Positions 8,023-53,891 of a stretch of DNA of 64,000 bases are shown here, piece after piece. The notes beneath the pieces are model-generated. The model had not been told where the DNA came from. It ran no database searches and was given only the letters and a program-made list of their open reading frames with translations. Source of the stretch: Parcubacteria group bacterium Greene0416_36 (GTDB lineage: Bacteria; Patescibacteriota; Patescibacteriia; VMEV01); assembly GCA_007375725.1 (NCBI GenBank), contig VMEV01000001.1, forward strand, positions 15,503 to 79,502. Reading direction: 5' to 3'. Position numbers and translations under genes: made by a program. The first letter of the stretch is position 1. Each line of letters opens with the position of its first letter.

Positions 8023-8108
8023 GCAACAAATCCCCCTTAATCCCCCTTTGACAAGGGGGAAATAGCGCCCTCCTTTGTCAAAGGGAGGGTTGGGGAGGGA
8101 TTTGTTGC
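8023..8108. repeat. GC-rich palindromic repeat element, copy 1
   Basis: aacaaatccccc..cccctttgacaaggggg..ccctcctttgtcaaagggagggttggggagggatttgttg; outer inverted repeat plus two internal hairpins. Confidence 0.8.
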
Positions 8109-9400
8109 TTATCCCTTCTTTTCCTATGAAACGTAATCGCAAATCGATGAGCTTCTTCTCTCATCCTTTCCACCAAAAGAGGGTCGTTTAAAAAAAATAA
8201 TGCCTGATCATTTTTAATCTCCTCCAATCCATACATATCCGTCTTTTTACGCGTGGGACCTTTGGCCACGGAGGCCACGGGGATCTTCTTCCCCGACCTT
8301 TCCACGGCCATCCGCGCCACGGCGAGCTGGGTTTTCCCGCCATCGATCAGGATCACGTCCGGCACGGACCAATCGTCATGTCGGAGACGCCGCTCCAGCA
8401 CTTCTTCGAGAGCCGCCAGATCATCAGATCCTGTCTCAGAACGTAAAATGAATTTCCGATATTCGTTTCGGTCCGGCTTTCCGTCGACGAAAACGACCAT
8501 GGATCCCACGGTATCGTGGCCTGATGTATGCGAAATATCGTAGGTTTCGATGCGGCACCGTTGGAGCGCACCTATGTGTGCGCCCTCATGACCATGACCA
8601 AGGCCCGAACCATCTCCGACAGGGCGGACACGCAGGTCCGCCCCTACGTCATCGGATGATCCCAACAATGCAATATCACGAATATGCCGCAGAGCAAATG
8701 CCTGATTGCGCAGAATCGCCGCGCGTTCAAAATCTTCGGATTTACCCGCCAGAACCATGTCTCTTTCCAATTTCTTGAGTAATTGTCCCTTTTTTCCTTC
8801 CAGCATCATCTGAATTCCCTTTATATTACGCAAATATTGGCTTCGGTCAATCGCCCCGTCATAGGGGCCGGGACACAGGCCAATCTGATAATCCAGACAT
8901 CCTTTCTCGCTTTTCTCAATCCGCTCATGAAAAGGAAAAATCTTTCGGATAATTTTGAGGGCAATGGTCATGTGTTTTCGTGAGGTATACGGACCGTACC
9001 TCCGCAAAATTTGTAAGGGCACAAAATTTTGTGCCCTTACAAATTGGGTCTCTCGCCAAATCAAAACTCGTGGAAATTTTTCCTTGGTAATCACAAAATA
9101 GCAGAAAGATTTATCGTCTTTACCGAGCGAATTATATTTCGGCTTATATTTCTTGATTAAATTCGCCTCGAGAATGAGGGCCTCGAGCACGGTTTCCGTC
9201 TCGACATAATCCACCTTGGCGCTCTGCCCCACCATATTGAAGATCCTCTCCCCCCTCGAGTCGTTCCCTGTGAAATACTGCCCCACCCGAGAACGCAGAT
9301 CCGTGGCTTTCCCAACATACAAAAGCCCGCCTGATTTATCTTTCCATAAATAGACGCCGGGGGTGTGGGGGAAGGTTTTGACACTCTCCATCAAATTCAT
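8078..9400 (-). CDS. uvrC: Excinuclease ABC subunit C, short form (GIY-YIG plus RNase H-like endonuclease region; no C-terminal HhH domain)
   Basis: GVYLWKDKSGGLLYVGKATDLRSRVGQYF GIY-YIG motif and a RIETYDISHTSG block. The C-terminus runs into repeat copy 1. Contains an in-frame insertion of about 30 aa. Confidence 0.75.
   Translation of the reverse strand: MNLMESVKTFPHTPGVYLWKDKSGGLLYVGKATDLRSRVGQYFTGNDSRGERIFNMVGQSAKVDYVETETVLEALILEANLIKKYKPKYNSLGKDDKSFCYFVITKEKFPRVLIWRETQFVRAQNFVPLQILRRYGPYTSRKHMTIALKIIRKIFPFHERIEKSEKGCLDYQIGLCPGPYDGAIDRSQYLRNIKGIQMMLEGKKGQLLKKLERDMVLAGKSEDFERAAILRNQAFALRHIRDIALLGSSDDVGADLRVRPVGDGSGLGHGHEGAHIGALQRCRIETYDISHTSGHDTVGSMVVFVDGKPDRNEYRKFILRSETGSDDLAALEEVLERRLRHDDWSVPDVILIDGGKTQLAVARMAVERSGKKIPVASVAKGPTRKKTDMYGLEEIKNDQALFFLNDPLLVERMREEAHRFAITFHRKRRDKQQIPPQPSL
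8562..8656. repeat. GC-rich double-hairpin palindromic element inserted in-frame in uvrC (same family as the tsaD insert)
   Basis: gagcgcac-ctatgt-gtgcgccc ... gggcggac-acgcag-gtccgcccctac. Encodes DDVGADLRVRPVGDGSGLGHGHEGAHIGALQ between the conserved LLG and RIExxDISH blocks, where E. coli has about 6 aa. Confidence 0.7.
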
Positions 9401-9505
9401 AATATTCCTTATAGCTTTTAAAAGCTTACCCAAATCCACTAAAAAAACAAAAGCCAACAAGATACAATCCTATCGGCCTTTAAAATGAATTATTTATTTC
9501 TCCGC

Positions 9506-10066
9506 TTATTTTTCCGCAATTTGTTTGTGCCAAATGCGGTACTTATCTCCAGATGAGCATTCCCATCCCAGAGCACCCAGATCTAAATTCACCACCCAAT
9601 TATTCAGCTCCTCTTTCAAGGTAAATTTGAGCAGTTTCTCATACCGAGTAACCTCCATTCTGAGATAAGGATATGATTTGCTCTTATCCGCAGGAACCTT
9701 TAAATCAACGAGGAATTTAAAGGAAGCACTCTTCAAAAAAGTCATTGCTTCCTGCTCTACCTGGGCGAGAAGATTATAACAAGCCCTTTCCTGTAAAATC
9801 TCAGTTGCCTGGACTTTCAAAGCCTCCAGATCTTTTTTGTAGATTTTCAACAAACTCTGACTATTTTCTTCAGACAAATCAACTGATTCTCCGGACAAGC
9901 TGAGAAAACGGTCATCAATGTCCACAAAAAACTTCGATTGAATTCCCAGCACGGTCAAAACATACTGAAAATTCTGTGGTTTTTTTTCACCCAAACACAC
10001 TAAAAACAGAATCAATCGGTCCACTTCGGAAATATCGCTTCTCTTGAAAAAATTACTCGCACTCAT
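9506..10066 (-). CDS. Hypothetical protein (186 aa)
   Basis: ORF in the gene train; no recognisable motif. Confidence 0.4.
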   Translation of the reverse strand: MSASNFFKRSDISEVDRLILFLVCLGEKKPQNFQYVLTVLGIQSKFFVDIDDRFLSLSGESVDLSEENSQSLLKIYKKDLEALKVQATEILQERACYNLLAQVEQEAMTFLKSASFKFLVDLKVPADKSKSYPYLRMEVTRYEKLLKFTLKEELNNWVVNLDLGALGWECSSGDKYRIWHKQIAEK

Positions 10067-10127
10067 TATAGAGCTCCTTTATCAAAAAAAATAAAATCAA
10101 AACCTCAAGAAAGTTAACACAAAAATA

Positions 10128-11279
10128 TTATCTTGTCAATACCCCCCTCGTCTCCCTCGCACACCTCTCCCACGAAAAATCACGAAGCCGAATCTTGCCC
10201 TTCTCGATCAAATCCCTCTTTAATGCCTCATTTTTTAAAATCCCCGCTATTTTCTCCGCCATATCCTCCACCGAATGCGGATCAAAATAGAGGGCGCCGT
10301 CACGGGCCACTTCCGGAATCGAAGCAATATGAGACGCGACCAGAGGAGTCCCCGCCGTAAACGCCTCCAGAATCGGAATCCCAAACCCTTCATACAATGA
10401 TGGAAACACAAAACAATCAGCACCTTTCATCAGATGAGGTAAGTCGGATTGGGGGACCCAGCCGGGAAACAACAAATCCCTCCCCAACCCTCCCTTTGAC
10501 AAGGGAGGGGGTAGCAGCCTCCCCCTTGTCAAAGGGGGATTGAGGGGGATTTGTTGCTCTATCTCCTCCCACCCCGTCCCCTTCCCTCCCGCCAAAACCA
10601 ATTTATGAGGGATCTGATACTTCTCTTTCAAAATCCGAAACGCGCGAATCAAGCCAACGACATTTTTCTTTTTCTCCAGACGCCCGACATAAAATAAATA
10701 CGGACCCTCAACATATTTTCGGACAATCTCCGACGTTTTATTCCAATCTGTTTTTTTATAAAGCTCCTCATCATATGACTGATACACTACGGAGATTTTG
10801 GACTCCGGAATCCGATAGCGCGCGATCATTTCCTGCCGCGAAAACTCCGAAATCGTGATGATGTGGCGCGCGCGGCGGACAGCCAGTCGCATGGTGAACC
10901 GGTGATAGGCCAGTTCTTTCCAGGAGTACAGTTCTGGAAAAGTCTCAAAACCGATATCGTGGCAGGTGGTGACGGTATTTTGTGGACTGATGATCGGCAA
11001 GGTATGCGCGGGGACAAATAAGACATCGGGAGCATCTGAGAGCATCTCCAGCGACAATCTCCCCTGTGTCCAGAGATATTTCGGCGGCCAATTCAAATAC
11101 TTCACCTTAAAATTCTCCGGCCAAACCGAAAAATCCGAGAGGAGCGGATCTCTCGTATATAACCGATATTGATTCTCGCGGTCCAATCGCGCCAAAGCAC
11201 GAATCAGATGATACGAATACCATTCAGTACCGGTACGTTTGGGTTTATTGGCGCGGGAAGCGTCGATGCCGATTAACAT
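10128..11279 (-). CDS. Family 1 (GT4-type) glycosyltransferase
   Basis: YVGRLEKKKN, LVLAGGKG and ADCFVFPSLYEGFGIPILEA motifs. Start set at MLIGIDAS (11279); the track ORF runs on into upstream repeat copy 3. Confidence 0.75.
   Translation of the reverse strand: MLIGIDASRANKPKRTGTEWYSYHLIRALARLDRENQYRLYTRDPLLSDFSVWPENFKVKYLNWPPKYLWTQGRLSLEMLSDAPDVLFVPAHTLPIISPQNTVTTCHDIGFETFPELYSWKELAYHRFTMRLAVRRARHIITISEFSRQEMIARYRIPESKISVVYQSYDEELYKKTDWNKTSEIVRKYVEGPYLFYVGRLEKKKNVVGLIRAFRILKEKYQIPHKLVLAGGKGTGWEEIEQQIPLNPPLTRGRLLPPPLSKGGLGRDLLFPGWVPQSDLPHLMKGADCFVFPSLYEGFGIPILEAFTAGTPLVASHIASIPEVARDGALYFDPHSVEDMAEKIAGILKNEALKRDLIEKGKIRLRDFSWERCARETRGVLTR
10470..10556. repeat. GC-rich palindromic repeat element, copy 2, lying in-frame (87 bp) inside the glycosyltransferase gene
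   Basis: Near-identical to copies at 11301 and 32514. It translates as QIPLNPPLTRGRLLPPPLSKGGLGRDLL within the GT ORF without a stop. Confidence 0.8.
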
Positions 11280-11300
11280 AATTAAACAACAAACAGCCAA

Positions 11301-11397
11301 CAACAAATCCCTCCCCAACCCTCCCTTTGACAAGGGAGGGGGTAGCAACCTCCCCCTTGTCAAAGGGGGATTGAGGGGGATTTGTTGTTTATTTTTT
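11301..11397. repeat. GC-rich palindromic repeat element, copy 3
   Basis: Same sequence family; lies between the GT start and the hpf stop. Confidence 0.8.
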
Positions 11398-11401
11398 ATT
11401 C

Positions 11402-11746
11402 TTAATTGTTTTTCGCCCTCACCCCTTCCTTCTGATCCTTGGCATGCAGTTTCTCCTTCGCTTTCTTAAGTTCCATTTCCAGTATTTTCTTGACTTCGAC
11501 GACAGCTTCGTCCAGATTCTTCGCCACACTCTCGGCGCGGATCAGATCACCGGCATTGAGATTCACAATCGCGCGAAATACATCACCTTTGTGATGATGA
11601 GTCGTTTTCTCGACTTCCACTCGGCCATCAATGATTCTGGAGTAGAATTTATCGAGATTGCCGATCTTGTCCTCGATCAAAGACTTGATGGCTGGAGTCA
11701 GGTCAAAATTTTTGGCGGAAATATGAAGAGTGATCATAAAAACCAA
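11402..11746 (-). CDS. hpf: Ribosome hibernation promoting factor / RaiA family
   Basis: ISAKNFDLTPAIKSLIEDKIGNLDKFYSRIIDGRVEV matches the S30AE/RaiA pattern. Confidence 0.8.
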   Translation of the reverse strand: MVFMITLHISAKNFDLTPAIKSLIEDKIGNLDKFYSRIIDGRVEVEKTTHHHKGDVFRAIVNLNAGDLIRAESVAKNLDEAVVEVKKILEMELKKAKEKLHAKDQKEGVRAKNN

Positions 11747-11820
11747 TTAAAAATTAAAAATGCAAAATTAAAAATGAATAAAAAAGCTGTTTCATTCTTA
11801 ATTTTTAATTATTAATTTTG
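11747..11820. repeat. AT-rich inverted repeat of the aattaagaatgaa family (copy b)
   Basis: aattaaaaatgaataaaaaagctgtttcattcttaattttt. Confidence 0.5.
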
Positions 11821-11823
11821 AAT

Positions 11824-12495
11824 TTAAAACCCCACCATCCTTATCCTCTCTCTCAGCTGCACCCCGTGCTGGTCGCGGACTTGCTGTTTGACATAGGAAA
11901 TGAGCATAACGGCGTGATTGGCGGTGCCTTTTCCCAAATTCACGAAAAAATTCGCGTCTTCTTCCGGCACCAGAATATCACCCATTTTTTTCCCCCGCAA
12001 ACCGGCTTTGGCCAATAAGTAGGAAGCGGGGATTTTTCCCGATTTACGAAAACCGTCATGTTCTTCCATGCAGTCACGAAGAATATCGTTTTTAAGCGCG
12101 CCCTGTTTGTCATTGGCGAGTTCACACGAATCCGGTTTGAGGACCACATCTTCAAATAAAGGCCCCGCATACCCAGCCAGTCCCGAAAAACGTGAATCAT
12201 CCGGAATTTCTGGCGTAGGATAAAATAGCACCACGGATTTGATCGCTCCATTATTACAGATCACGGGTTCTCCTTGAGGCAGTAAAAAAGAACTGATCTT
12301 CTCCAATTCAAGCTTTCGCACAGCCTCTTCGGCCTCTTGTTTGGATGACATCTTCAAACAATACAAAGCCGTCCCACCTACTTTTAAAGTGGTATACGGG
12401 GCGAGGGGCTCATTGAGGAGTAATTTTTCTTGGAAATTTTGTTGGAGAAAATGAAGGGGGTCCATAAGCATGTCATGGTGAGCCTGTCGAACCAT
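11824..12495 (-). CDS. murB: UDP-N-acetylenolpyruvoylglucosamine reductase (short form)
   Basis: LAPYTTLKVGG motif and dcw-cluster context. Confidence 0.75.
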   Translation of the reverse strand: MVRQAHHDMLMDPLHFLQQNFQEKLLLNEPLAPYTTLKVGGTALYCLKMSSKQEAEEAVRKLELEKISSFLLPQGEPVICNNGAIKSVVLFYPTPEIPDDSRFSGLAGYAGPLFEDVVLKPDSCELANDKQGALKNDILRDCMEEHDGFRKSGKIPASYLLAKAGLRGKKMGDILVPEEDANFFVNLGKGTANHAVMLISYVKQQVRDQHGVQLRERIRMVGF

Positions 12496-12540
12496 CTCTC
12501 TGTAAATGAAGATCCTTCGACAGGCTCAGGATGACAAGTT

Positions 12541-13920
12541 TTATTTTTTTAAAAACTTCCTCGCCACCCTGCCCGCGTCCCCAGCCCCCATAAACACAAT
12601 CACATCTCCTTTTTGAGTACTTTTCTCTAACCAGGCCTCAACCTCATCAAGAGTGGGCACAAAATAAGCGGTTTTTCCGATTTTAGAAATTTCAGCCACA
12701 ACTGAGGCTCCGGTAATCGTCCCTTTGGCTTCTCGGGCAGAGGCATAAATATCCGTCACCACGGTCACATCCGCGTCCAAAAAGGCTCCTCCGAAACCAG
12801 CGAGCAAGGCTTCGGTTCTCGAAAAGGTATGGGGCTGAAACACGGCTACAATCCGACGTCCGGGATAAAATTCACGGAGCGCGTCTAGAGATGCCTCGAT
12901 TTTCTGCGGATTATGAGCATAGTCATCGATGACTAGCACTCCATTCTTCTCCCCCAATACCTCCAGCCGCCGCTCCACCCCGCCATAAGAAGCCAAGGAA
13001 GACTGAATGGTTCCAAAAGGCACTTGCAAAGCGCGAGCGAGCGCAATAGCGCCGAGAGCATTGTGAACATTGTGACGGCCCGGAACACGAAGCGACATCT
13101 CCGCGGACCCCACGTCAAACAAAATATGCCCTTTTTCTACTCGGACTTTCTCTCCTCGAATCTGCGCCTTGGGTGAAAATCCAAAGGTCACGAGTTTGCA
13201 TTTGGCACGGGAGACGATGGTCTCGACAATCGGATGATCGATTCCAGCGACCAAGATTCCGTCCTTGGGCAAGAGGCCAATGAACTCTTCAAATACTTTT
13301 TGATAATCCGCTGGAGTGGGAAAACAATCGGGATGTTCCCAATCAATATTATTTAGCACTATGGCTCGAGGACGATACTGCAGAAACTTTTTCTGATATT
13401 CATCCGACTCCAGAATAAAATGATCGCCGCCACCCACCAAAGCATTCCCCCCCAGTTGAGGCACATTCGCGCCGATAATGGCCTTGGGATCCAGCCCCGC
13501 GTCCTTGAGAATACAAGCGAGCATAGCGGTGGTCGTGGTTTTGCCATGCGAACCACACACGGAAATACCAAAAGGGCTCGCGTTGAACAAAAGGGCAACA
13601 GCCTGCGGATACGACAATGCCTCAATTTTCTGTTCCATCACCCAGCCTAATTCGGGATTCGTCTCGGGCCGATAGGCCGTGGAATAGATGACACCTTGAC
13701 CTGGTAAGGGCGTATTGCAATACGCCCTTACATGTGCCACCGAAAACCCCTCATGAACTTCTATTCCCGACTTCGCCAATACGGCATCCGTGCCGAATTT
13801 CTCCGCCACGTCCGAACCTGTTACCCGAATTCCCATGGACTGGAGCATTTGAGCCAAAGCCGTCATGCCCACGCCTTTAACCCCGATCATATATACCGAT
13901 TTTATTCGCGAGAAATCCAT
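12541..13920 (-). CDS. murC: UDP-N-acetylmuramate--L-alanine ligase
   Basis: IYMIGVKGVGMTALA and GSHGKTTTTAML motifs. Confidence 0.9.
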   Translation of the reverse strand: MDFSRIKSVYMIGVKGVGMTALAQMLQSMGIRVTGSDVAEKFGTDAVLAKSGIEVHEGFSVAHVRAYCNTPLPGQGVIYSTAYRPETNPELGWVMEQKIEALSYPQAVALLFNASPFGISVCGSHGKTTTTAMLACILKDAGLDPKAIIGANVPQLGGNALVGGGDHFILESDEYQKKFLQYRPRAIVLNNIDWEHPDCFPTPADYQKVFEEFIGLLPKDGILVAGIDHPIVETIVSRAKCKLVTFGFSPKAQIRGEKVRVEKGHILFDVGSAEMSLRVPGRHNVHNALGAIALARALQVPFGTIQSSLASYGGVERRLEVLGEKNGVLVIDDYAHNPQKIEASLDALREFYPGRRIVAVFQPHTFSRTEALLAGFGGAFLDADVTVVTDIYASAREAKGTITGASVVAEISKIGKTAYFVPTLDEVEAWLEKSTQKGDVIVFMGAGDAGRVARKFLKK

Positions 13921-14007
13921 AAATTTCTCTTATTTTAGCATCTATCAAGATAAAAATCCAAATAAAAAAAGAACCGAAAATATTTTCGATTCTTTTTCTA
14001 ATTCCAC

Positions 14008-14286
14008 AAAAAGGGCTTGGTTGACAGGCGGGATTCTTTGACGTATACTAATATAAAGTTGTAAACAAGGTATCTGATCCAACTATAGGATCTACTTGCA
14101 TGGACTTGTTTACAGACTTCATATTTTACTTTGCTTCAAAGAGTCCTATGGCTATAGGATTCTTTTAGTTTTAATTGCAATTACTATAAGTAAAAACAAG
14201 GTTAAAACTAAAATGGTTTGATCCATAACACCTATCACCCCCTTTCCTGAGTTAATGACTCAAGATCCGGATCAGATACGCAAGTA
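14008..14286 (+). ncRNA. Conserved non-coding element copy A; candidate small RNA carrying its own promoter (function unknown)
   Basis: About 85% identical to 16002..16278. Stems are preserved with loop changes and a G-U-compatible substitution (GAGTCCTA..TAGGATTC versus GAATCCTA..TAGGATTC). No conserved ORF. Confidence 0.4.
14021..14049 (+). promoter_or_regulatory. Sigma-70-like promoter TTGACA-N17-TATACT
   Basis: ttgacaggcgggattctttgacgtatact; conserved in copy B at 16015..16043. Confidence 0.5.
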
Positions 14287-14342
14287 TTTCAACTTAACCT
14301 ACCAACACAAATTTGCAAGGTCGTTTTATCCCCAAAAATTCG

Positions 14343-14380
14343 AATAAAAAAAGAACCGAAATTTATTTCGGTCCGCACTT
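14343..14380 (-). terminator. Rho-independent terminator hairpin downstream of the 14399..14737 gene
   Basis: accgaaa-tttat-tttcggt stem followed by a T-run on the minus strand. Confidence 0.5.
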
Positions 14381-14398
14381 TCCAGACTATTAAAAGTT

Positions 14399-14737: not shown

Positions 14738-14797
14738 AACACACTAAAAAATAGCATATTGCGGGAAACAAGACAACCCCACCTAATCAAAATCCGT

Positions 14798-15879: not shown

Positions 15880-16001
15880 TAAAATTCCCCTTTTCACTCA
15901 CGATAACATGTAAATAAGGTAAACAAAATAGCCCTCCCCGCTTCGCCCTAAGGCGGGCTACGCGGGGCAAGCCCCGGTTGGGAAAGCTATCTTTTTTTTC
16001 A

Positions 16002-16278
16002 TAAAAGGGATTGGTTGACAGAGCGGATTCTTTGACGTATACTCAGATAAAGTTGTAAACAAGATACCCGATATCTTTTGTGTCTACTTGCACGGACTTG
16101 CTTACAGACTTCACCTCACGTTTGTTTAGAGAATCCTACCCTATAGGATTCTTTTTGTTTTAATTGCAATTACTATAAGTAAAAACAAAGTTAAAACTAA
16201 AATAGTTTGATCCATAGTTCTCTGTCTCACCCCCTTTCCGAGTTTAATAACTCCAGACCCGGATCGGATACGCAAGTA
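16002..16278 (+). ncRNA. Conserved non-coding element copy B; candidate small RNA
   Basis: Paralog of 14008..14286 with the same TTGACA-N17-TATACT promoter (16015..16043). Confidence 0.4.
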
Positions 16279-16356
16279 ATTCACATTACATCAAAGAATT
16301 ATATTTTCAATGCTGACTTATCCACCAAAAAAGAGCCACCTGAGGTGGCTCTTTTT

Positions 16357-17493: not shown

Positions 17494-17696
17494 AAGGGAA
17501 CAAACCCATCCCCAACCCCTCCCTTAACAAGGAAGGGCGTAAATCGAACCCTTTCGAAAATAAAAAGGGCCAGTGGGGTTTCTATTAGAATACTGGGATA
17601 CGAAAAATTAGGCAAAAAATGAATAAACCATCGCTATTGGGCGATGGCTATTTTGGAAAAGATAGAATTCCAATGCTATTAGTCTACCATTTTCTT

Positions 17697-18515: not shown

Positions 18516-19562
18516 TTACAAAATACGATCCAAAATAAAGAGCGCCAATCCAAATGCCGCGGATACGGCAGAAATCACCCAAAAACGCATGACGATTTTG
18601 GATTCCGGCCAGCCGATGGCTTCAAGATGATGATGGATTGGGGCTGACAGAAACACCTTTTTACCACGAAATCGTTTGGACAACAACTGGATAATCACGG
18701 AAAGCGACTCAACCACAAACAAAATACCAATAATCGGCAGGAATAATGCGGTATTGGTGAGCATGGCCATGATGCCCAAGACCACACCAAGTGACATGGC
18801 CCCGGTGTCTCCCATATAAAAACGAGCCGGAGGAATATTGTACCAGAGAAATGCCAAAAGGCTTCCCATGATCACGCCGCAAAAAGCGGCCAAATCATAT
18901 CGGCCCAATAAGAAAGCCATCACCGCCATAGACATAAAAGCGGCCAAAAGTGTTCCTCCGGCCAACCCATCGAGGCCGTCGATTTCATTGACCGAAAAGG
19001 CGGTAGCCACAATGATGAAAATAAAGATGGGAATATACCACCAACCAATGGAAAAATCACCCAAAAAAGGAACATGAAAAATATCCCAGCCCAATTTTGA
19101 ATAGAACCACCAGGCGCAAATCGAGGCGACAACCGTGTACAGACCCAAACGCTGTTTCATGGTGAATCCGCCGGATTTAGAGATCATGCGGTTGATATTG
19201 AACCAATCATCCGCCATTCCCACCAATCCCGCCAAAACCAAGGCACCCAGAGGCAAAAGAGTCTCGGATCGACTCAAAAAATTGAGTCTGCCGATCCATG
19301 AATCCGGAAACCAGGAATGGAGATAAAAAAATAGGAGAGCCAGGCACAGTGTCGTTCCCCACATCAAAATTCCACCCATAGTGGGAGTTCCTGCTTTTTT
19401 GGCATGAAGAGCGCTCATGACGGGCGTCGAACCGTCGCTGCGGATATGTTTGCCCATCTTATATTTATAAAGAAAATGGCTCAGAAACGGCGTCACTATA
19501 AAGGCCGCCACAAAAGATAAAGTCGCTAGAAACAAAATTTTTACCAAATAAAAACCGAGCAT
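18516..19562 (-). CDS. mraY: Phospho-N-acetylmuramoyl-pentapeptide transferase
   Basis: NEIDGLDGLAGG and MGDTGAMSLG motifs. Confidence 0.9.
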   Translation of the reverse strand: MLGFYLVKILFLATLSFVAAFIVTPFLSHFLYKYKMGKHIRSDGSTPVMSALHAKKAGTPTMGGILMWGTTLCLALLFFYLHSWFPDSWIGRLNFLSRSETLLPLGALVLAGLVGMADDWFNINRMISKSGGFTMKQRLGLYTVVASICAWWFYSKLGWDIFHVPFLGDFSIGWWYIPIFIFIIVATAFSVNEIDGLDGLAGGTLLAAFMSMAVMAFLLGRYDLAAFCGVIMGSLLAFLWYNIPPARFYMGDTGAMSLGVVLGIMAMLTNTALFLPIIGILFVVESLSVIIQLLSKRFRGKKVFLSAPIHHHLEAIGWPESKIVMRFWVISAVSAAFGLALFILDRIL

Positions 19563-25772: not shown

Positions 25773-25774
25773 AT

Positions 25775-25860
25775 GACAAAAAAATTAAGAATGAAGAATT
25801 AAGAATGAAGCGGACTGTTGTTCATCTTTAATTCTTCATTCTTCATTCTTAATTATATGA
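25775..25860. repeat. AT-rich inverted repeat of the aattaagaatgaa family (copy c)
   Basis: aattaagaatgaagaattaagaatgaagcggactgttgttcatctttaattcttcattcttcattcttaatt. Confidence 0.5.
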
Positions 25861-27796: not shown

Positions 27797-27841
27797 AAGA
27801 AAAAAATGAAAAATTAAGAATGGAGAATGAAGCAGCAGAAC

Positions 27842-27918
27842 AACAAACCCATCCCTAACCCTTCCCTTTGCTCCAGAGGCGCATCCGCCTTTGGCGGGAA
27901 CAAGGAAGGGAGCAAGGA
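27842..27918. repeat. Divergent member of the GC-rich palindromic repeat family
   Basis: aacaaacccatccctaacccttccctttgctcc..aggcgcatccgcct..ggagcaagg. Confidence 0.5.
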
Positions 27919-27977
27919 AATTTCGCTATTTGCTGATATTATTAATAATATCGTTTTTATTGATTTTATTCAAAAAT

Positions 27978-31972: not shown

Positions 31973-31983
31973 ATTATTTACAT

Positions 31984-32069
31984 AAAATCCCCCTCAGTCC
32001 CCCTTTGACAAGGGGGAGGCTGCTACGCCCCCTCCCTTGTCAAAGGGAGGGTTGGGGAGGAATTTGTTG
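31984..32069. repeat. GC-rich palindromic repeat element, copy 4 (between the dnaK start and the hsp20 stop)
   Basis: aaaatccccctcagtccccctttgacaagggggaggctgctacgccccctcccttgtcaaagggagggttggggaggaatttgttg. Confidence 0.8.
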
Positions 32070-32071
32070 TT

Positions 32072-32506: not shown

Positions 32507-32513
32507 AGAAAAT

Positions 32514-32599
32514 AACAAATCCCCCTCGGTCCCCCTTTGACAAGGGGGAAGCTGCTACCCCCTCCCTTGTCAAAGGGAGGGTTGGGGAGGGATTTGTTG
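32514..32599. repeat. GC-rich palindromic repeat element, copy 5 (between hsp20 and grpE)
   Basis: Same family; near-identical to copies 2 and 3. Confidence 0.8.
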
Positions 32600-32611
32600 C
32601 TAAATTGTTAA

Positions 32612-33330: not shown

Positions 33331-33906
33331 CTACTTCCTAATTTTTAAATCATACAAAATCTCCTCCACTCGGCTCAAATTGCGCTTGGCGTCATCGAAT
33401 TTGGAACGGAGTTTGCCGACTAGGTCGAAACCCAAAAGGCCGGCGACCACATTTTCGGTGAAAGCGCGGATATTTTTGATTTCAGACTCCGAATCCTTCT
33501 TGCCTTCTACAACCAAGAGCACAGCGCGGCGAACCAGTTCACCGGTCACATCGCAAACAGCCCCCAAATACTCCTCAAAAAATTCGACTTCCACGGACTT
33601 GAGTAATTCCACAGATTCTCCTTTGAGATACATATAAAAAAACTTAGCTTCAAGATATTCTTCCAGCGCCGCGCGAAACACGCCTTCGGAATCCTCGCCG
33701 TCGGAGAGCCGGTTGATGTCCTTGATTTTGGCATCCATCAAATCAAAATTCTTCTCGGCCAGAGCTAAATCATTGCGATGCAGAGCAAAAATAGACTGTT
33801 TGGCAAGCTTCAAAATATCAGAAGACTCGGCAATAACGGCGTGACGGCTCTCTCGATATTTTTGATAATGAGACAAAAGCTCAGGAAACATTTTTTTAGA
33901 GATCAT
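33331..33906 (-). CDS. Translin-family-like protein embedded in the heat-shock operon
   Basis: LEEYLEAKFFYMYLKG and DVTGELVRRAV resemble the translin motifs QEYVEAVSFQHFIK and DLTGELMRM. Confidence 0.5.
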   Translation of the reverse strand: MISKKMFPELLSHYQKYRESRHAVIAESSDILKLAKQSIFALHRNDLALAEKNFDLMDAKIKDINRLSDGEDSEGVFRAALEEYLEAKFFYMYLKGESVELLKSVEVEFFEEYLGAVCDVTGELVRRAVLLVVEGKKDSESEIKNIRAFTENVVAGLLGFDLVGKLRSKFDDAKRNLSRVEEILYDLKIRK

Positions 33907-33937: not shown

Positions 33938-34018
33938 GCAACAAATCCCCCTTAATCCCCCTTTGACAAGGGGGAGACTGCGCCCTCCCTTGTCAAATGG
34001 AGGGTTGGGGAGGGATTT
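33938..34018. repeat. GC-rich palindromic repeat element, copy 6 (between translin-like and hrcA)
   Basis: gcaacaaatcccccttaatccccctttgacaagggggagactgcgccctcccttgtcaaatggagggttggggagggatt. Confidence 0.8.
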
Positions 34019-34022
34019 TTAT

Positions 34023-34772: not shown

Positions 34773-34799
34773 TTAGCACTCACCAAAGACGACTGCTAA
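34773..34799. promoter_or_regulatory. CIRCE operator (HrcA binding site)
   Basis: TTAGCACTC-N9-GACTGCTAA; one mismatch to the TTAGCACTC-N9-GAGTGCTAA consensus; immediately upstream of hrcA. Confidence 0.7.
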
Positions 34800-34895
34800 A
34801 AGCATTATAGGAACACCCAAAAACAATGTCAAATACAAACGCAAAAACGCCCTATATAAAAGCGTTTTTCAATGCAATTGATCCCAAATCTAGAG

Positions 34896-39826: not shown

Positions 39827-40414
39827 CTATATCTGATATCTCGTAAACCTCGTGACCTCAATCTTCTCTCCCAATCGCGCGATCTTTTCTTTGACGAGAT
39901 CAGACACGGTTTTCGTATCATCCTTGATAAATTTCTGTTCCAAGAGGCAATTATCCTGATAATAAGTCTTGAGCTTGCCTTCGAGGATCTTGTCGAGCAT
40001 TTCTTCTTTTTTGCCCTCTTTTCGAAGCTGTTCTCGGAGGATTTCTTTCTCTTTCTCCACCGCTTCCGTAGGAACAGACGCAATGCTCACAAAAAGAGGA
40101 TTGCCGGCCGCAGCCTGCATGGCCAAATCTTTCGCCAGCTCCTTAAATTCCTCATTGCGTGCCACGAAATCCGTCTCGCAGCGCACTTCCACCATAGTGG
40201 CTACCTTACCATTGGCATGCAGATACATGCCGACGAGGCCTTCTCCAGCCGTGCGGTCATTCTTCTTGTCCGCCTTCAGAATCCCCTGCTTGCGAAGATA
40301 TTCCGCGGATTTATCCATATCTCCCCCATTGGCTTCGAGGGCCTTTTTGCAGTCCACAATCCCCGCGCCCGTCCTTGCGCGCAGTTCGGATACGAGTTTA
40401 GAATCAATGTTCAT
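39827..40414 (-). CDS. tsf: Elongation factor Ts (short form)
   Basis: LRARTGAGIVDCKKALEANGGDMDKSAEYLRKQG UBA-like N-terminus. Confidence 0.9.
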   Translation of the reverse strand: MNIDSKLVSELRARTGAGIVDCKKALEANGGDMDKSAEYLRKQGILKADKKNDRTAGEGLVGMYLHANGKVATMVEVRCETDFVARNEEFKELAKDLAMQAAAGNPLFVSIASVPTEAVEKEKEILREQLRKEGKKEEMLDKILEGKLKTYYQDNCLLEQKFIKDDTKTVSDLVKEKIARLGEKIEVTRFTRYQI

Positions 40415-40483
40415 AAAATAAGCCGCCCTGTTGTTCCCTCCCTTGTAAAGGGCAGGGTTAGGGAGGGGTTTATTGTTAGAGCC

Positions 40484-43404: not shown

Positions 43405-43410
43405 AGAATA

Positions 43411-48351: not shown

Positions 48352-48357
48352 AGTTTT

Positions 48358-49314: not shown

Positions 49315-49323
49315 ATCAAAAGT

Positions 49324-49764
49324 CTAAATTGCCGTCCCCGAAAAATCCCCCAACTTTTCCGCAATACTAGAGCTGGAAGACTCATTGTCCGACTGATATC
49401 GGGTCCAAGCCTCCTCATTCCAAATTTCCACTTTATTATATAAACCCACCACCACGGTTTTCTTGCTGATTTTGGCGAATACGCGTAAATACTCGGGAAT
49501 CACGATTCTTCCCGCGCGGTCCATCCCCACATCCATCGCCCCGGAGAGCACAAAACGACTAAATGCCCGGCCATCGCTTTTGTTGATCGGCAGGGTCGCA
49601 AGTTTCTGGGCCAAGGTTTTCCATTCATCCAGAGCGTAGAGAGTGAGGCATCCATCCAGTCCCCGGGTCACCACCGCTCCGCGCCCCAAGGACTCTCTGA
49701 ATTTCACCGGCAATGACAATCGCCCCTTATCATCCAAAGAATAAAAATATTGTCCGATAAACAT
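49324..49764 (-). CDS. mraZ: Transcriptional regulator MraZ
   Basis: MFIGQY, DDKGRLSLP and a duplicated MraZ-domain pattern. Confidence 0.9.
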   Translation of the reverse strand: MFIGQYFYSLDDKGRLSLPVKFRESLGRGAVVTRGLDGCLTLYALDEWKTLAQKLATLPINKSDGRAFSRFVLSGAMDVGMDRAGRIVIPEYLRVFAKISKKTVVVGLYNKVEIWNEEAWTRYQSDNESSSSSIAEKLGDFSGTAI

Positions 49765-49969
49765 AATTTTTTCCTACTACCGCCTTGAAAAGGTAGGAGC
49801 ACAGCGCGCTGTGCCCCTACCTTTTAGCATCCGTCGGGCGTGATATCACGACAAGCATGGAAGTGATTCCACTTTTTCCCACTTTTAACCACTACAAGCC
49901 CAAGATACACCACACCGACCCAAACATCAATATTATTCCTGTGCATAAGTCATTTTTTTAAGAAAAATA

Positions 49970-50004
49970 AATGTAGGGGCGTTGCATGCAACGCCCCTAC
50001 ATTT
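49970..50004. terminator. GC-rich hairpin of the gtaggggc...gcccctac family (bidirectional terminator-like)
   Basis: aatgtaggggcgttgcatgcaacgcccctacattt flanked by A/T runs. A related hairpin aaaggtaggagcacagcgcgctgtgcccctaccttt lies at 49788..49824. Confidence 0.55.
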
Positions 50005-50019
50005 ATTTTTCGTGATTGA

Positions 50020-50667
50020 TTATGCTTGCGTATCCGCCACCACATCCCTTATCCGATCCCATACCACAATCTTTCTGGCATTGAGAATAGAATCGAGAAA
50101 TTTGTCTCCAATGCCTTGGCGATAGCGGAATTCGTCGGGAGAAAAAATGGAAAATCGGATGGAACGGCCCAGCTTGGCTTCATATTCTGCCAAAAGACTC
50201 CGAATATCCGTTCTCGACTGATCCATGACCAATAGAATATCCACGGGGCTCTCGGCATCCGTAAAAAAACCGGTCGCGGCAAAATAATCAATGCCGCCCA
50301 AGGCTAGAATTTTGGTAAAGTATTGCTCGCGAAAGAAGAACTGGGACTTAAGAAAAAGCCCTTGCAGTTCAGGATAAAGACGAAAGGCCTTGGCTACCTG
50401 GAAATATCTTTTTTCCTGAATTCCGACAGCCCCCCCACCTTCGTCCCCCTTTAGGGATTCCGACTCTTCCAAAATGCCCACCTGCACAAGGTTAAGAAGT
50501 TCCCTTCGGACCGCGTGAATTTGGATATCTGCCATTCGAGTCAATTCGCGCACATAAAAAAATTTGTCAGGATGAGTGAAAAAAATATAAAGTAGAACGA
50601 ATCGAGTCCTAGACCCGAACAAATTTTCCAAAAGTAAATCTTGTTTCCAATCCGAACTATAATCCAT
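50020..50667 (-). CDS. Winged-helix plus nucleotidyltransferase-like domain protein
   Basis: N-terminal wHTH-like segment (FYVRELTRMADIQIHAVRRELLNLVQVGIL) and a C-terminal GGIDYFAATGFF....ILLVMD NTase-like pattern. Confidence 0.45.
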   Translation of the reverse strand: MDYSSDWKQDLLLENLFGSRTRFVLLYIFFTHPDKFFYVRELTRMADIQIHAVRRELLNLVQVGILEESESLKGDEGGGAVGIQEKRYFQVAKAFRLYPELQGLFLKSQFFFREQYFTKILALGGIDYFAATGFFTDAESPVDILLVMDQSRTDIRSLLAEYEAKLGRSIRFSIFSPDEFRYRQGIGDKFLDSILNARKIVVWDRIRDVVADTQA

Positions 50668-50728
50668 AAATTCATTTACTTATCAAATTGGACATAATAT
50701 AATATTTTCGTATCAGTCTGTAAAGCTT

Positions 50729-52864
50729 ATGCAACATAAGATCGTTCAATGCGAAAAATTCGTACAAAATTCTCCAGGCCGGCACAATTATATGTCTGTC
50801 TTTTCAGCCTCCTCCGGAGAAGATTCTTCCGTCTTGGCTTTGATTGTCGAAGCCAGAAAACAAAACCCGTCGGAGCATGGAATCGAATTCGAGAGTCTTT
50901 TTAAGACCCTCCAATATTATTATTGGCATATCCATAACGATCCCCAAAAAAAACCAGAGGATAATTTCGAACAATCCCTCAAAAGCCTTAACAATGAAAT
51001 ACTCCGGATGATCCAAGAGCGAAAACTCATTATCCGCCTCTCGGCCATTCAAATGCTTGTCATGCTCATCAAGCCATCCCGCGAATCCAATAAATATTGG
51101 GATATTTATATGTCCTCTTACGGGAATCTCCGAGCATACCTCATTCATCAGCTGCCGCTGGAAACTTATAAAATGATCTCCATTCCACTGGACGGCGTGG
51201 CCCTGACAGATAACCGATTTGCGCCGCTCTTCGCCAATATCATATCTGGAAAATTGCAGGAAAAAGACACATTACTCATGGGAGGGGATGCCATACTCGA
51301 ATATATGAATGAAGAAGAACTCACGGGAGTCCTTTCCTCTCTGCCTCCGTCAGGCGTTGCCAATTATATTCGAACCCAGCTCCAAAAATACAATCAAACA
51401 TTCGGATCGTTAATTTGTAAAATTGGAGAGATTCCCAGTCCCTCCCGTTTTGAGTACGCGCACCAAAATCCAGATACCCAAAGCCAAGAATCCCTTGAAA
51501 ATCTAGTGCTCACCGAAAAAAGAACGGCTCAAATACTCTCCCCGCTCGCCTCAGAAACCGACAATAAATTCGTGCGAACATTGGGGAAAAGCCTCCTCTA
51601 TTTGCGTCATGGAGCCAGCCTTGCGGCTCAATTTGTCAAAACGCGATTTGGCAGTCTTTTCGCTAAAACCGACCCGCAGATATTGCCAGAGAAGCCCCAG
51701 ACCCAGCTTGGCCGAATACAAAATATCACCATGAATATTATCGGCTTTATCTTCAATCTGATCACATCATTCTCCTCCAAAAGTTTTCGGCTCTTGGGCA
51801 TCACCTTGATTCTGTTCACCTTAACCTATGGTTCCATAGTCTGGATCAAAAATAAAAAAATATCCGTGGAAGCCGAACATGCCTATACTCGAATAACCCA
51901 AGAGACCCAGGAAACAAAAAATCAGATTGAAGCCGCGCTGATCTATGGACAAGAATCAAAGGCCAGAGAACTGTTGGAAACCCTAAAAAATAAAATATCC
52001 TCTATAAATCCCAGCGACGACCAAACCAAACAAGAATTTTTCTCTGGCGCCCGCGGAGATATTGCCAAATTCCAAGATATCCTCAATCATAATAACCGAC
52101 TGACTCTCGGCGAAATCTGGATGAACATCTCCTCCACCTTGGGAGATAAAAAAACGATAGCCTGGGCATCCACCCAGACCCACCTCCACGCCGTTCTAGA
52201 CACGGGAGTTATTTATAAAATAGACATCAAGAACAAAGATATATTGGAACTCGAAGAATTTCAGGGCAAAAACGCGGCACTGGCCATAGGAAACACTCAG
52301 CAAATCTTGATTTTGGACACTGGCGGCAATTGGCATCTTTTGGAAAAAGATAATAGCTTCTCCGCACTCAAATCTAATATTCCTAACCCGGAATCTATCA
52401 GCGACGGTGTTTTCTATAATAAAAAGCTTTATCTCCTCGACCGCGCCCATAGCCAAATTTATAAAGCGAGAATCGATGGCAGTAGCTTGGTTTTAGAAAA
52501 AAAATGGCTTGAAGATAATACCGATCTCTCCCAAGTAAAAACGATAGCCGTAGACGGACGGGTTCTTGCATCGAACTCTTCCGGAAATATCAAGATCTTT
52601 TTTAGCGGTAAATTGTCGGCAGACGTGATCACTCTTGACCGACCCAATCCGGAACTGGGCTCGATCACCCAACTCTATACCCAGCTAGATTTCCCGCACA
52701 TTATCGCCCAAGACAAAAGTCGAGTCCTCATCTGGAGCTCCCAGGGTCAGCTGGAAGGCCAATTCGCCAAGGAAGACCTCTCCCCTCTGGACGGATTTTC
52801 CGTGGTCGGACAAGATCTCTACATCGCCGGAGGAGGGATGATTTGGAAAGAGGAGTTGAAGTAA
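50729..52864 (+). CDS. Hypothetical 711-aa membrane protein: cytoplasmic N-domain, one TM, extracytoplasmic beta-propeller-like C-domain
   Basis: TM at LLGITLILFTLTYGSIVWI. C-terminal repeats LYLLDRAHSQIY, VLASNSSGNIKIF, VLIWSSQGQL and LYIAGGG suggest a propeller. Confidence 0.45.
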   Translation: MQHKIVQCEKFVQNSPGRHNYMSVFSASSGEDSSVLALIVEARKQNPSEHGIEFESLFKTLQYYYWHIHNDPQKKPEDNFEQSLKSLNNEILRMIQERKLIIRLSAIQMLVMLIKPSRESNKYWDIYMSSYGNLRAYLIHQLPLETYKMISIPLDGVALTDNRFAPLFANIISGKLQEKDTLLMGGDAILEYMNEEELTGVLSSLPPSGVANYIRTQLQKYNQTFGSLICKIGEIPSPSRFEYAHQNPDTQSQESLENLVLTEKRTAQILSPLASETDNKFVRTLGKSLLYLRHGASLAAQFVKTRFGSLFAKTDPQILPEKPQTQLGRIQNITMNIIGFIFNLITSFSSKSFRLLGITLILFTLTYGSIVWIKNKKISVEAEHAYTRITQETQETKNQIEAALIYGQESKARELLETLKNKISSINPSDDQTKQEFFSGARGDIAKFQDILNHNNRLTLGEIWMNISSTLGDKKTIAWASTQTHLHAVLDTGVIYKIDIKNKDILELEEFQGKNAALAIGNTQQILILDTGGNWHLLEKDNSFSALKSNIPNPESISDGVFYNKKLYLLDRAHSQIYKARIDGSSLVLEKKWLEDNTDLSQVKTIAVDGRVLASNSSGNIKIFFSGKLSADVITLDRPNPELGSITQLYTQLDFPHIIAQDKSRVLIWSSQGQLEGQFAKEDLSPLDGFSVVGQDLYIAGGGMIWKEELK

Positions 52865-52919
52865 TAGCAACAAACCCATCCCCGGCCCTCCCCTTAACAA
52901 GGGAGGGTTAGGGAGGGGT

Positions 52920-53891
52920 TTATTTTGGAATCTGAGGGCAATTAAACAAGAATTTCGTTTCTTCCAAACCGTTGACGCCTTTTTTAAAATTCACGTGGCG
53001 GCCGATATCAGATACCAGCTGATCGAAAGATTTCCAGGCCTTAACGGATAATTGAGGGTCCGAAAGAGTCGGATAAGTATTTTTGACATGAATAAAAGAA
53101 AGCTTCCAAATAGGCGTATACGAAGGATGACTGCGTTCAAAACTGGCCACATTAACAGAATCCCGCAAATCAGTATCTCCACTCATATCCTTGGACCACA
53201 TCTTTTCAAACAGGCTTTCCTTATCCCCATCCCTCCAGACAGACACAACCGGCATGGTATCTATTTTCTTTACTTCCGAAACTGCCAGACTGGTTTCAAA
53301 TTGAAGCGCAGTGGCGCGTTTTTTATTGTAATAGATATCTATTTTTCTCGGGAAATTGCCGTCATGATCTTGAATTTTCACGTCGCGGCTCACGATAGGC
53401 ATATTGACCCCCATGCCGGAAAAAGTGACCGAGAACACTTTGTCTTTTTCAGCCTCCAAAATAGTATGGATGGATTTCACCGAGTTGGGCACATAACGCC
53501 GCGGAACATGAACATGAAAAATCTCCCACATTTCCCCATAAGCAGGATCTCCCGGCTTAATATAAACAATAGGCATTTGATCTTCTATCACGCGGCCATC
53601 CGGATCCATAAAATAATAGAGGGCATTGATGTAAGGATTTGGAACTTGTGGGATAAAGTAGCACGACCGCTCCGCTCCGCCCGCGTAATAATCAACAAGA
53701 TCAATATTGCGGGGATACAAATCCGCATTGCTGTCGTCCAAAATACCCTCCTCGACATCCGAATATTTAGCCAAAACAGCATCTTCCCGCTGGAGAGTCC
53801 GGAAATGATACAAACCTATTCCCAATGCTGCCAATACACAAATACTCAAAATATAAAACCGTTTTTCCATTAAATTCTCCATATAAATCAA
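52920..53891 (-). CDS. Hypothetical signal-anchored secreted protein (323 aa)
   Basis: N-terminal hydrophobic anchor; no recognisable domain. Confidence 0.4.
   Translation of the reverse strand: MIYMENLMEKRFYILSICVLAALGIGLYHFRTLQREDAVLAKYSDVEEGILDDSNADLYPRNIDLVDYYAGGAERSCYFIPQVPNPYINALYYFMDPDGRVIEDQMPIVYIKPGDPAYGEMWEIFHVHVPRRYVPNSVKSIHTILEAEKDKVFSVTFSGMGVNMPIVSRDVKIQDHDGNFPRKIDIYYNKKRATALQFETSLAVSEVKKIDTMPVVSVWRDGDKESLFEKMWSKDMSGDTDLRDSVNVASFERSHPSYTPIWKLSFIHVKNTYPTLSDPQLSVKAWKSFDQLVSDIGRHVNFKKGVNGLEETKFLFNCPQIPK

Follow-up and report, generated by a model that had tools for sequence, protein, structure and literature searches.

The described repeats closest to those reported here are the REPINs (REP doublets), in which two inverted short palindromic units are joined by a variable spacer and can fold alternatively as one long hairpin or as a clover (PMC3116915, Fig. 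S11). REPINs are extragenic, reach high copy number, occur as neighbour clusters and decayed singlets, and produce no target duplication; they have an unpaired GT[AG]G or CGTC tag 0-2 nt from the foot of their hairpins, owe their mobility to RAYT/TnpA-REP Y1 transposases (Bertels & Rainey 2011, PMC3116915), whose single-copy gene the repeats flank, and usually form lineage-specific families. Surveyed REPs lie between unidirectional or convergent genes and are occasionally intragenic (PMC3733652). The RPEs of Rickettsia, about 100-150 bp long, are palindromic repeats of a reduced genome that can lie in frame in housekeeping genes, where they encode fold-compatible surface peptides (PMC10969869); nearly half are intragenic in three of ten families. 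Two further kinds deserve comparison, the small, non-coding TIR-type MITEs (Correia/NEMIS, ERIC/IRU, RUP, Nezha) and the SPRITE or terminator-like repeats, GC-rich stem-loops that stand right after stop codons.

The window (the whole 64,000-nucleotide stretch of Parcubacteria DNA analysed here) contains six near-identical full copies, 85-91 bp long, of a palindromic element and four partial or divergent ones. Searches with nhmmer and cmsearch found a family member at each of the ten positions listed in the original prediction; the full copies reach 92-106 bits in nhmmer and, in cmsearch, 92-115 bits at E-values of 1e-25 to 1e-32, and the weaker members (17496-17587, 27839-27925, 40414-40477 and 52866-52927) score 13-31 bits, half-unit singlets being more diverged than doublets (13-31 versus 92-115 bits). 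The copies, and the two genes that contain copy sequence, are:

8023-8110, plus strand: full copy, short-linker subfamily, in the gap that separates uvrC from sua5/tsaE
8078-9400 (start approximate), minus strand: uvrC-like gene, 440 aa as called, with its 3' end within the copy at 8023
10128-11278, minus strand: GT4 glycosyltransferase gene, 383 aa, holding an in-frame copy
10470-10556, minus strand: full copy, 87 bp, inside the GT4 gene, coding for residues 242-270
11301-11387, minus strand: full copy in the space separating hpf (S30AE) from the GT4 ATG at 11278
17496-17587, minus strand: half-unit "singlet" (outer arm and one hairpin) in the Cu-oxidase_4-ftsW spacer
27839-27925, strand unassigned: divergent member of the AACAAACCCATCCC subfamily whose loop contains one more nested hairpin, in the rhodanese-DUF5671 spacer
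31982-32070, plus strand: full copy occupying the hsp20-dnaK spacer; it adjoins the hsp20 stop, and the dnaK ATG is 11 nt further
32513-32600, plus strand: full copy in the grpE-hsp20 spacer
33938-34022, plus strand: full copy in the gap between hrcA and the translin-family gene, its degenerate terminal arm adjoining the hrcA stop
40414-40477, plus strand: half-unit (one hairpin and outer arm) occupying the whole rpsB-tsf spacer
52866-52927, minus strand: one-hairpin version with both outer arms, occupying the gap between two convergent genes

Nine of the ten lie in spacers between unidirectional or convergent genes, and this placement and the occasional intragenic copy agree with the surveyed REPs. 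Copies commonly begin directly at the stop codon of the preceding gene, and both orientations relative to transcription are present. Seven full and five partial copies lie on the 88.6-kb contig, and another contig from this assembly has six in 20 kb; the element occurs about once per 3-7 kb and makes up the bulk of many intergenic spacers. The copies at 10470 and 11301, 831 bp apart, differ by 1 nt, and other adjacent pairs (for example the neighbours at 18937 and 19746 on contig L136) are likewise identical or 1 nt different, which points to recent local copying. Nesting goes both ways: a larger inverted repeat encloses one copy, and some copies are themselves interrupted by other hairpins.

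Each element is made of two inverted half-units of about 40 nt, and each half-unit of an arm, RRCAACAAATCCCCC, and, next to it, a short C5/G5 hairpin whose loop is TGAC or GTCA; the termini, RRCAACAAATCC...GGATTTGTTGYY, are terminal inverted repeats. This confirms the outer inverted repeat with two internal hairpins that had been read from the sequence. The alternative folds are a single hairpin of about 40 bp and a clover (outer stem plus two hairpins). The three-way fold that had been proposed is thus possible, but for the window copies the minimum-energy prediction is a single long hairpin (-40 to -69 kcal/mol; stability z = -5 to -9), and the three-way form is 0.6-11 kcal/mol weaker. Among 21 distinct relatives, perfect pairing extends over 5.7-5.9 bp in each local hairpin versus 3.4 bp in the long-hairpin register, and compensatory stem changes are present; the clover is thus the fold that the relatives conserve.

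"MITE/REP-like", the name first given to the element, holds as a label for behaviour: it is small, palindromic and multi-copy, occurs in both orientations, is sometimes nested, has neighbours 0-1 nt apart and is a place where contigs break. With the REPINs it shares the two inverted palindromic units and variable spacer, both folds, the extragenic position, the high copy number, the neighbour clusters and decayed singlets, and the lack of target duplication. Unlike them it is about 88 bp long with arms of C5/G5 runs, has a CPR host and has related copies that span phyla. No GT[AG]G or CGTC tag is conserved in an alignment of 11 full copies (GTAG is present in the long-linker subfamily only, on one strand, 5 nt from the hairpin), and about 110 kb contains no RAYT or other transposase and no parent insertion sequence with matching ends; the genes called on the 88.6-kb contig and on another 30 kb of contigs include no Y1_Tnp or other transposase domain. 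Like the TIR-type MITEs the element is small, non-coding and multi-copy, has TIRs of 12-17 bp, is transcribed within operons and may be nested; unlike them it has a hairpin doublet rather than a deleted IS as its interior, and target-site duplications flank none of 13 copies (direct repeats beside them reach at most 0-1 nt). Because target-site duplications, the GTAG/CGTC tag and, in about 110 kb, a transposase are all missing, we call the element REPIN/MITE-like, membership in either being unproven. The SPRITE or terminator-like repeats resemble it as GC-rich stem-loops right after stop codons, and differ in that it has no U-tract. Its likeness to RPEs is one of behaviour, an in-frame copy with a fold-compatible peptide; it is shorter, and just one of the 12 copies in 88.6 kb is intragenic (plus one that overlaps a gene 3' end). 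In Rfam, tRNAs and non-specific miRNA-hairpin matches were all that passed the gathering or E-value thresholds, and viral contigs, phage records and E. coli genomes gave no match. Literature searches on MITEs or palindromic repeats of CPR/Parcubacteria, and on the element's literal sequence, gave nothing relevant.

The element is of an already known kind of selfish DNA, and we think it probable (roughly 0.6) that the family is non-autonomous, self-copying palindromic DNA that behaves like REPINs or small MITEs. Its copying, often over short distances, would fall to an enzyme that acts in trans and whose gene lies in another part of the genome. IS200/RAYT-type HUH transposases use folded single-stranded DNA as substrate and make no target duplications, and by analogy the enzyme would most plausibly act in this manner, on a single-stranded form that, like the RNA form, is expected to fold as one long hairpin or as a clover. 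The copies end up at the few sites that this compact genome tolerates: spacers, the very 3' end of uvrC and a GT4 protein segment exposed at the surface. In operon mRNAs they would be transcribed passively as very stable stem-loops, and may there alter processing or stability.

At the first of the two coding sites, copy 8023 contributes the final nine UvrC residues (QQIPPQPSL) and the stop codon, TGA at 8078-8080. At the second, the copy at 10470 lies in frame in the GT4 ORF (10128-11278, minus strand) as had been described: it is exactly 87 bp, or 29 codons, is stop-free and encodes QQIPLNPPLTRGRLLPPPLSKGGLGRDLL. Comparison with GT4 orthologues, which had been suggested as a check, bears out the 29 repeat codons but shows no clean insertion, as about 13 native residues are missing; in this displacement the copy is unlike RPEs. 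Since native sequence has been replaced, recombination or template switching fits as well as transposition does. Directly upstream of the copy is a native G-rich tract, GGGAGGGAAGGGGAC (within the G4 motif at 10568-10590), that resembles an element arm. The AlphaFold model of the protein (mean pLDDT 88.8) has an intact flanking fold; repeat-coded residues 246-263 fall below pLDDT 50, and most of the repeat segment is modelled as a disordered surface loop, with LGRDLL of the repeat peptide placed within the fold in lieu of the native helix end and strand start. The closest relatives, at only 52% (GT4) to 75% (DnaK) protein identity, are too distant to reveal an empty site or an excision. Tolerance of an in-frame copy had been thought unusual; it is not, since intragenic palindromic repeats that keep the frame are on record for Rickettsia RPEs, ERIC, BOX and REPs (PMC10969869, PMC3733652), and the element itself has three of six reading frames open and a length of 3n.

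Short-read assemblies break at these repeats, and contigs L135, L137 and L139 begin or finish inside copies, so the intragenic copy, or even the whole family, might be an artefact of collapsed or chimeric repeats, the possibility by which the original prediction could have fallen. We consider this highly improbable. The two sides of the 10470 copy are parts of a single GT4 gene that keeps one frame and aligns colinearly with 19 orthologues, and an identical 383-aa protein is present on six assembled contigs; a chimeric join is excluded there, because both flanks are colinear with a single orthologue family and the six contigs agree. The dnaK region nearby is also recovered in a Logan assembly made independently from SRR8863435, and copies differ from one another at 1-19 positions.

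The copies had also been placed upstream of dnaK, hsp20 and grpE. Three do lie in that operon (hrcA-translin-grpE-hsp20-dnaK; the neighbours are all on the minus strand), but the one at 33938 is in the gap between hrcA and the translin-family gene, and not directly upstream of grpE. Such clustering has a nominal hypergeometric P of 0.005, uncorrected for the post-hoc choice of operon, and could mean that the copies are cis-regulatory operon RNAs (attenuators, terminators, thermometers or mRNA stabilisers) selected in place, heat-shock control included; the hairpins are very stable and would be transcribed, and REP and Correia elements, which may be analogous, have known effects on mRNA stability. 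We find this reading quite unlikely. The enrichment is not unusual as had been supposed: repeats cluster likewise in consecutive gaps of a Redoxin-DsbD-DCC1 operon on another contig, the heat-shock operon has a perfect sigma-70 promoter of its own upstream of hrcA together with a CIRCE operator (34773-34799, downstream of that promoter and the sole CIRCE in the window), and a relative with a 75%-identical DnaK has hrcA-grpE-dnaK-dnaJ without the element. Nor do the copies keep one orientation. A test for structural change with temperature had been suggested, but the predicted fold is far too stable for sensing, persisting at 60-75 °C (-35 to -61 kcal/mol at 45 °C; at 75 °C it still has -16 to -30 kcal/mol); an RNA thermometer was rejected on this account, the fold not being of the marginal kind that melts at 37-45 °C, and because start codons come 8-31 nt after the element, outside the structure, with SD and AUG not occluded. 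An intrinsic terminator or SPRITE was rejected too, as none of the six full copies is among the terminator-like sites; their tails read AUUUGUUG, and it is for want of a U-tract that they do not match the terminator consensus. The half-unit at 17496-17513 does appear among these sites, and the genome's apparent terminators are other, AT-rich hairpins followed by T-runs. The presumed self-copying element probably supplies no dedicated regulators of the heat-shock operon.

Several other identities were considered and discarded. The repeats do not match the consensus of the CIRCE/HrcA operator (TTAGCACTC-N9-GAGTGCTAA). The TTGACA loop could resemble a -35 box, and a -10 at proper spacing is missing; supply of an SD to downstream genes would require it to act across 14-31 nt. 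Copy orientation disagrees with GC skew, contrary to FtsK KOPS polarity. By inspection, the ends AGCAAC...GTTGCT match integron attC cores (RYYYAAC...GTTRRRY) at AAC/GTT only, and the neighbours are housekeeping operon genes, where attC sites lie between promoterless cassettes. The 854-aa "DnaK" P0125 is an internally duplicated, unrelated protein.

Unexpectedly, the same architecture occurs in Moraxella, Aeromonas, Rahnella, Photobacterium, Pseudanabaena, Clostridia, Nitrospirae, Patescibacteria and soil metagenomes (about 27 human-gut loci are one syntenic locus and were counted once), with a common asymmetry in which H1 is C5/G5, H2 is CCCTCCC/GGGAGGG and the outer arms are AAYCCCC/GGGGNGGGRTT. 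Plasmid matches from unseeded BLAST score 24-69 bits against the window-derived model. A purely lineage-specific selfish element is hard to reconcile with such similar elements in distant phyla. Tentatively, the family in the window may belong, as its CPR branch, to a cross-phylum superfamily of clover-type palindromic repeats that has yet to be described, doubtful as this still is; its pattern may be an AAYCCCC arm, a C5/G5 hairpin, a spacer, a CCCTCCC/GGGAGGG hairpin, a GGGGNGGGRTT arm and a one-strand G4-capable tract, and it may span Patescibacteria, Proteobacteria (Moraxella, Aeromonas, Rahnella, Photobacterium, Azospirillum), Cyanobacteria, Clostridia and Nitrospirae. If true, it would be a third REP-like group beside the GTAG and CGTC superfamilies, and would imply either a mobilising enzyme that crosses phyla or a conserved host function.

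The latter would make the element a site at which a widely conserved protein or nucleic-acid structure recognises the C5/G5 double hairpin and G4-capable tract, perhaps in chromosome organisation, replication/recombination or mRNA processing, its repetition being a consequence of function. Besides the recurrence of the architecture and asymmetric stems across many lineages, this could explain why distant copies also lie between co-directional operon genes (for example narH-narG, and nifX and its neighbour) and why elements contain nine of the window's 14 G4 motifs, versus 0.66 expected. We regard it as unlikely nonetheless. In the G4-capable tract, GGGAGGG-NN-GGGGNGGG, the G runs pair with the C-rich arms, which compete with any G4; AT-rich CPR variants and the gut variant have no G4 tract at all. 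No neighbouring gene common to the lineages and no protein partner was found, copies occur in both orientations and one inside a gene, and the fairly close relative mentioned above has no element at the same operon.

CPR bacteria have streamlined genomes of roughly 1 Mb, and an abundant, selfish-looking repeat in one of them bears on how far reduced genomes tolerate mobile DNA. The element breaks assemblies, rewrites the uvrC 3' end and remodels the GT4 glycosyltransferase; its cross-phylum relationship, if real, is a route to a new REP-like superfamily and to its partner enzyme or function. Another GC-rich repeat, at 15939 and 63466, has no significant structure. A search with the repeat peptide returned three short spurious ORFs only and missed P0001 itself, and so is unusable as a census. 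Spurious ORFs are an annotation issue in their own right, P0121-P0123 for example being translated repeats.

Direct-repeat, nhmmer and covariance-model searches recovered all ten positions in the window at which the original prediction had placed a palindromic repeat. Six of these are full copies of 85-91 bp (92-115 bits, E 1e-25 to 1e-32 in a search space of 64 kb), of which those at 10470 and 11301 are oriented opposite to the other four; the weaker sites comprise half-units, a version with a single hairpin and a diverged copy in which a further hairpin is nested. The copies are as follows:

8023-8110, full copy
10470-10556, full copy
11301-11387, full copy
31982-32070, full copy
32513-32600, full copy
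33938-34022, full copy
17496, 27839, 40414 and 52866 (starts), weaker sites

The remainder of the 88,575-bp contig to which the window belongs was also searched and has two more copies, one full and the other partial, so that the 88.6 kb contain 7 full and 5 partial copies in all. On a second contig from this assembly there are six copies within 20 kb, and sibling Parcubacteria MAGs from the same site also have the element. Several contigs begin or finish within a copy, so assemblers break at the element. The minus strand carries nearly all genes near the copies, and the gene content (DUF5671, short EF-Ts, short UvrC, a Sua5-TsaE fusion) is consistent with a CPR genome.

The consensus of the element is RRCAACAAATCCCCCTYRRTCCCCCTTTGACAAGGGGGA-(linker)-CCCTCCCTTGTCAAAGGGAGGGTTGGGGAGGGATTTGTTGYY. 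Its variable parts are mainly the linker and the 4-6 nt separating the outer arm from the first hairpin, and by this variation copies fall into short-linker and long-linker subfamilies. A further subfamily has the common ends (AGCAACAAACCCATCCCC...) but TTAACAA loops. The minimum free energy (MFE) fold, as RNA or DNA, is one hairpin of about 40 bp (RNA folds of -40 to -69 kcal/mol, z = -3.6 to -8.8; DNA folds of -31 and -35 kcal/mol for the two copies computed), and the "clover" fold, an outer stem with the two local hairpins forced, lies just 0.6-11 kcal/mol above it. Among 21 distinct relatives the local hairpins are each perfect over 5.7-5.9 bp beyond the TT/AA pairs and the long-hairpin register over only 3.4 bp; thus the outer repeat with two hairpins that was originally described is the conserved form. 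Compensatory stem changes among relatives include CCCCC/GGGGG, CCCTC/GAGGG, TCTCCC/GGGAGA and CCCCTCC/GGAGGGG.

The structure of the element, its many copies (some of them near-identical neighbours and some nested) and its remodelling of two genes (below) were observed directly, and a non-autonomous, REPIN/MITE-like element that copies itself accounts for them best; how it is copied, the enzyme that would serve as its partner and any influence on mRNA are inferred. Its long hairpin and clover match the pair of alternative folds of REPINs (REP doublets) described by Bertels and Rainey (PMC3116915). On the other hand, it is missing both the tag that defines the REP superfamilies and the target duplication that defines TIR-type MITEs (none flanks any of 13 copies examined), so we liken it to a REPIN in how it works and do not call it a member; the earlier label "MITE/REP-like" fits its behaviour, with one defining feature missing from each class. 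The window also has 14 canonical G-quadruplex motifs (0.66 expected from shuffles), nine of them within repeat copies (GGGAGGGTTGGGGAGGG; examples at 8083-8099, 10478-10494, 11309-11325, 32575-32591 and 52901-52918).

GT4, a glycosyltransferase gene (10128-11278, minus strand, 383 aa), carries an 87-bp copy in an open frame, as predicted. The copy supplies the codons for residues 242-270, and the Pfam Glycos_transf_1 match is split at this segment. Chimeric assembly is excluded, as the sequence on either side of the copy belongs to a single gene read in one frame and the protein is found on six contigs; it is 100% identical to one from "Parcubacteria group bacterium Gr01-1014_18". The 29-residue segment is absent from 19 orthologues (46-54% identical, mostly about 370 aa), but these have about 13 native residues at the site, so the copy replaces native sequence with a net gain of 16 aa and is not a simple insertion. 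In the MAFFT alignment the repeat-encoded ...GLGRDLLF stands opposite the native ...NLGDKVIM. In the AlphaFold model (mean pLDDT 88.8, pTM 0.87) residues 246-263 have pLDDT <50 and 244-264 are without secondary structure; LGRD forms a short helix and LLFPG the following beta-strand. Three of the element's six reading frames lack stops and its length is a multiple of three, so it is not unlikely that a copy should be open and in frame, and since in-frame palindromic repeats were already known (PMC10969869; PMC3733652) this one is ordinary, not unusual as first thought. The copy in GT4 and its neighbour just ahead of the gene, 831 bp away, are identical except at one base, and a native G-rich tract 14 nt from the former, GGGAGGGAAGGGGAC (encoding GGKGTG), is similar to the element arm GGGAGGGTTGGGGAG; these two features make local copying aided by homology a plausible but unproven origin.

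The uvrC ORF enters copy 8023 and stops at the TGA within its TTGACA loop, so that UvrC ends ...FHRKRRDK-QQIPPQPSL; the final nine residues are repeat-encoded and C-terminal to the Pfam RNase-H domain match. Occupied spacers consist mostly of the copy itself: copy 31982 adjoins the hsp20 stop codon and ends 11 nt ahead of the dnaK ATG, the grpE-hsp20 spacer is 11 nt, a copy and 8 nt, the degenerate end of copy 33938 adjoins the hrcA stop, and copy 52866 occupies the whole gap between two convergent genes.

The heat-shock operon is ordered hrcA, copy, translin-family gene, grpE, copy, hsp20, copy, dnaK, dnaJ, and so has the three copies predicted. A perfect 12/12 sigma-70 promoter (TTGACA-17-TATAAT, 34832..34804) lies upstream of hrcA, followed, still ahead of hrcA, by a CIRCE operator with one mismatch (34773-34799); canonical HrcA control is therefore present in this CPR genome. 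No intrinsic terminator was flagged at any full copy. The copies are predicted to remain folded at 75 °C and the operon's start codons lie outside them, which argues against a response to temperature. Nor is the operon special, since hrcA-grpE-dnaK-dnaJ is free of copies in the closest relative available, whose DnaK is 75% identical, and a Redoxin-DsbD-DCC1 operon on the second contig has copies in three consecutive gaps. All of these features speak for the copies being passengers, not regulators of heat shock. Their clustering appears to reflect local copying, since neighbouring copies (10470/11301, and 18937/19746 on contig L136) differ by only 0-1 nt. The relative's grpE-dnaK spacer holds ATGTCTA tandem heptamers (contig L142, 5865-5940), and its operon is without hsp20 and the translin-family gene (here 33331-33906, minus strand; PF01997, E 6e-18).

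The density of the element in a CPR genome and its cross-phylum look-alikes make it worth following. A 22-nt hairpin pattern has single matches in nine GTDB genomes; three Patescibacteria matches and one Nitrospirae match have the same two-hairpin architecture, and four Clostridia matches have a common GGTGGAGG(G/A)ATT flank. A loop-anchored pattern finds at least 120 metagenome loci, such pattern-seeded loci being enriched by construction. The outer AATCYYY/RRRGATT arms were absent from this pattern; among the matches listed, at least 53 loci have one or more and at least 40 have both (<0.1 expected by chance, by our own estimate), and about 27 of the loci listed are one syntenic human-gut locus. 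Unseeded BLAST of a window copy against plasmid records finds Moraxella (76-78% identity over 74 nt, between narH and narG), and the Moraxella copy in turn finds Aeromonas, Shewanella, Azospirillum, Rahnella, Photobacterium, Paenibacillus and the cyanobacterium Pseudanabaena, at up to eight places per record. With the window-derived model, five of these loci (Moraxella, Aeromonas, Rahnella, Photobacterium, Pseudanabaena) give 24-69 bits. Conservation covers their stems and arms (CTCCCCC/GGGGGAG, CTCCCTCCCC/GGGGAGGG, AACCCCCTC/GGGGTGGGGTT) and the loops are variable, in sequences of low complexity (C and G runs) whose likeness could be homology or convergence. No description of such a family was found in Rfam, in literal-sequence literature searches or in the REP survey PMC3733652, which does not mention these genera. 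The G-quadruplex tract is kept in the same five look-alikes.

Other repeats are also present. On either side of murG lies a non-coding unit of about 290 bp (13990-14345, 15984-16345); the two are paralogous and 86% identical, and Rfam has no match to them. Their minus strands encode, with synonymous differences, one and the same hydrophobic peptide of 24 aa, MDQTILVLTLFLLIVIAIKTKRIL (14152-14223, 16141-16212), and their plus strands each have a sigma-70 promoter that matches at 11/12 positions (14021-14049, 16015-16043); the pair resembles a duplicated type I toxin/antisense-RNA module. A tRNA-Ser(CGA) gene (4229-4316) is followed about 50 nt on by an 86%-identical duplicate of its 3' half (4363-4418), at which ARAGORN calls no tRNA. 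A small GC-rich repeat, CGCTTCGCCCTAAGGCGGGCTACGCGGGGC, whose predicted structure is not significant, occurs twice (15939-15975, 63466-63502), and a relative of it is nested within a copy of the main element on L136 (18145-18180). AT-rich palindromes of AATTAAG/AATGAAG heptamers form a second intergenic family (6817-6906, 11742-11831, 25773-25847, 27802-27834), one of which immediately adjoins the divergent copy 27839. One copy also lies within a larger palindrome that is itself repeated, TTATACCAAATTCAAATAA...TTTTTGAAAATGGCC[copy]GCATTTTTGAAAATGC...TTATTTGAATTTGGTATAA (L134 6590-6830; L136 9990-10120; L135 1-150), which is 99% identical on other contigs and is translated as the spurious proteins P0121 and P0122. 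About two tandem units of about 74 bp (GAGATAATAGAAAGTGAAAAATAGAAATCCCCTTTGTTTATATAG...; L134 6440-6590) adjoin a restriction-modification/SLFN-AlbA locus just outside the window.
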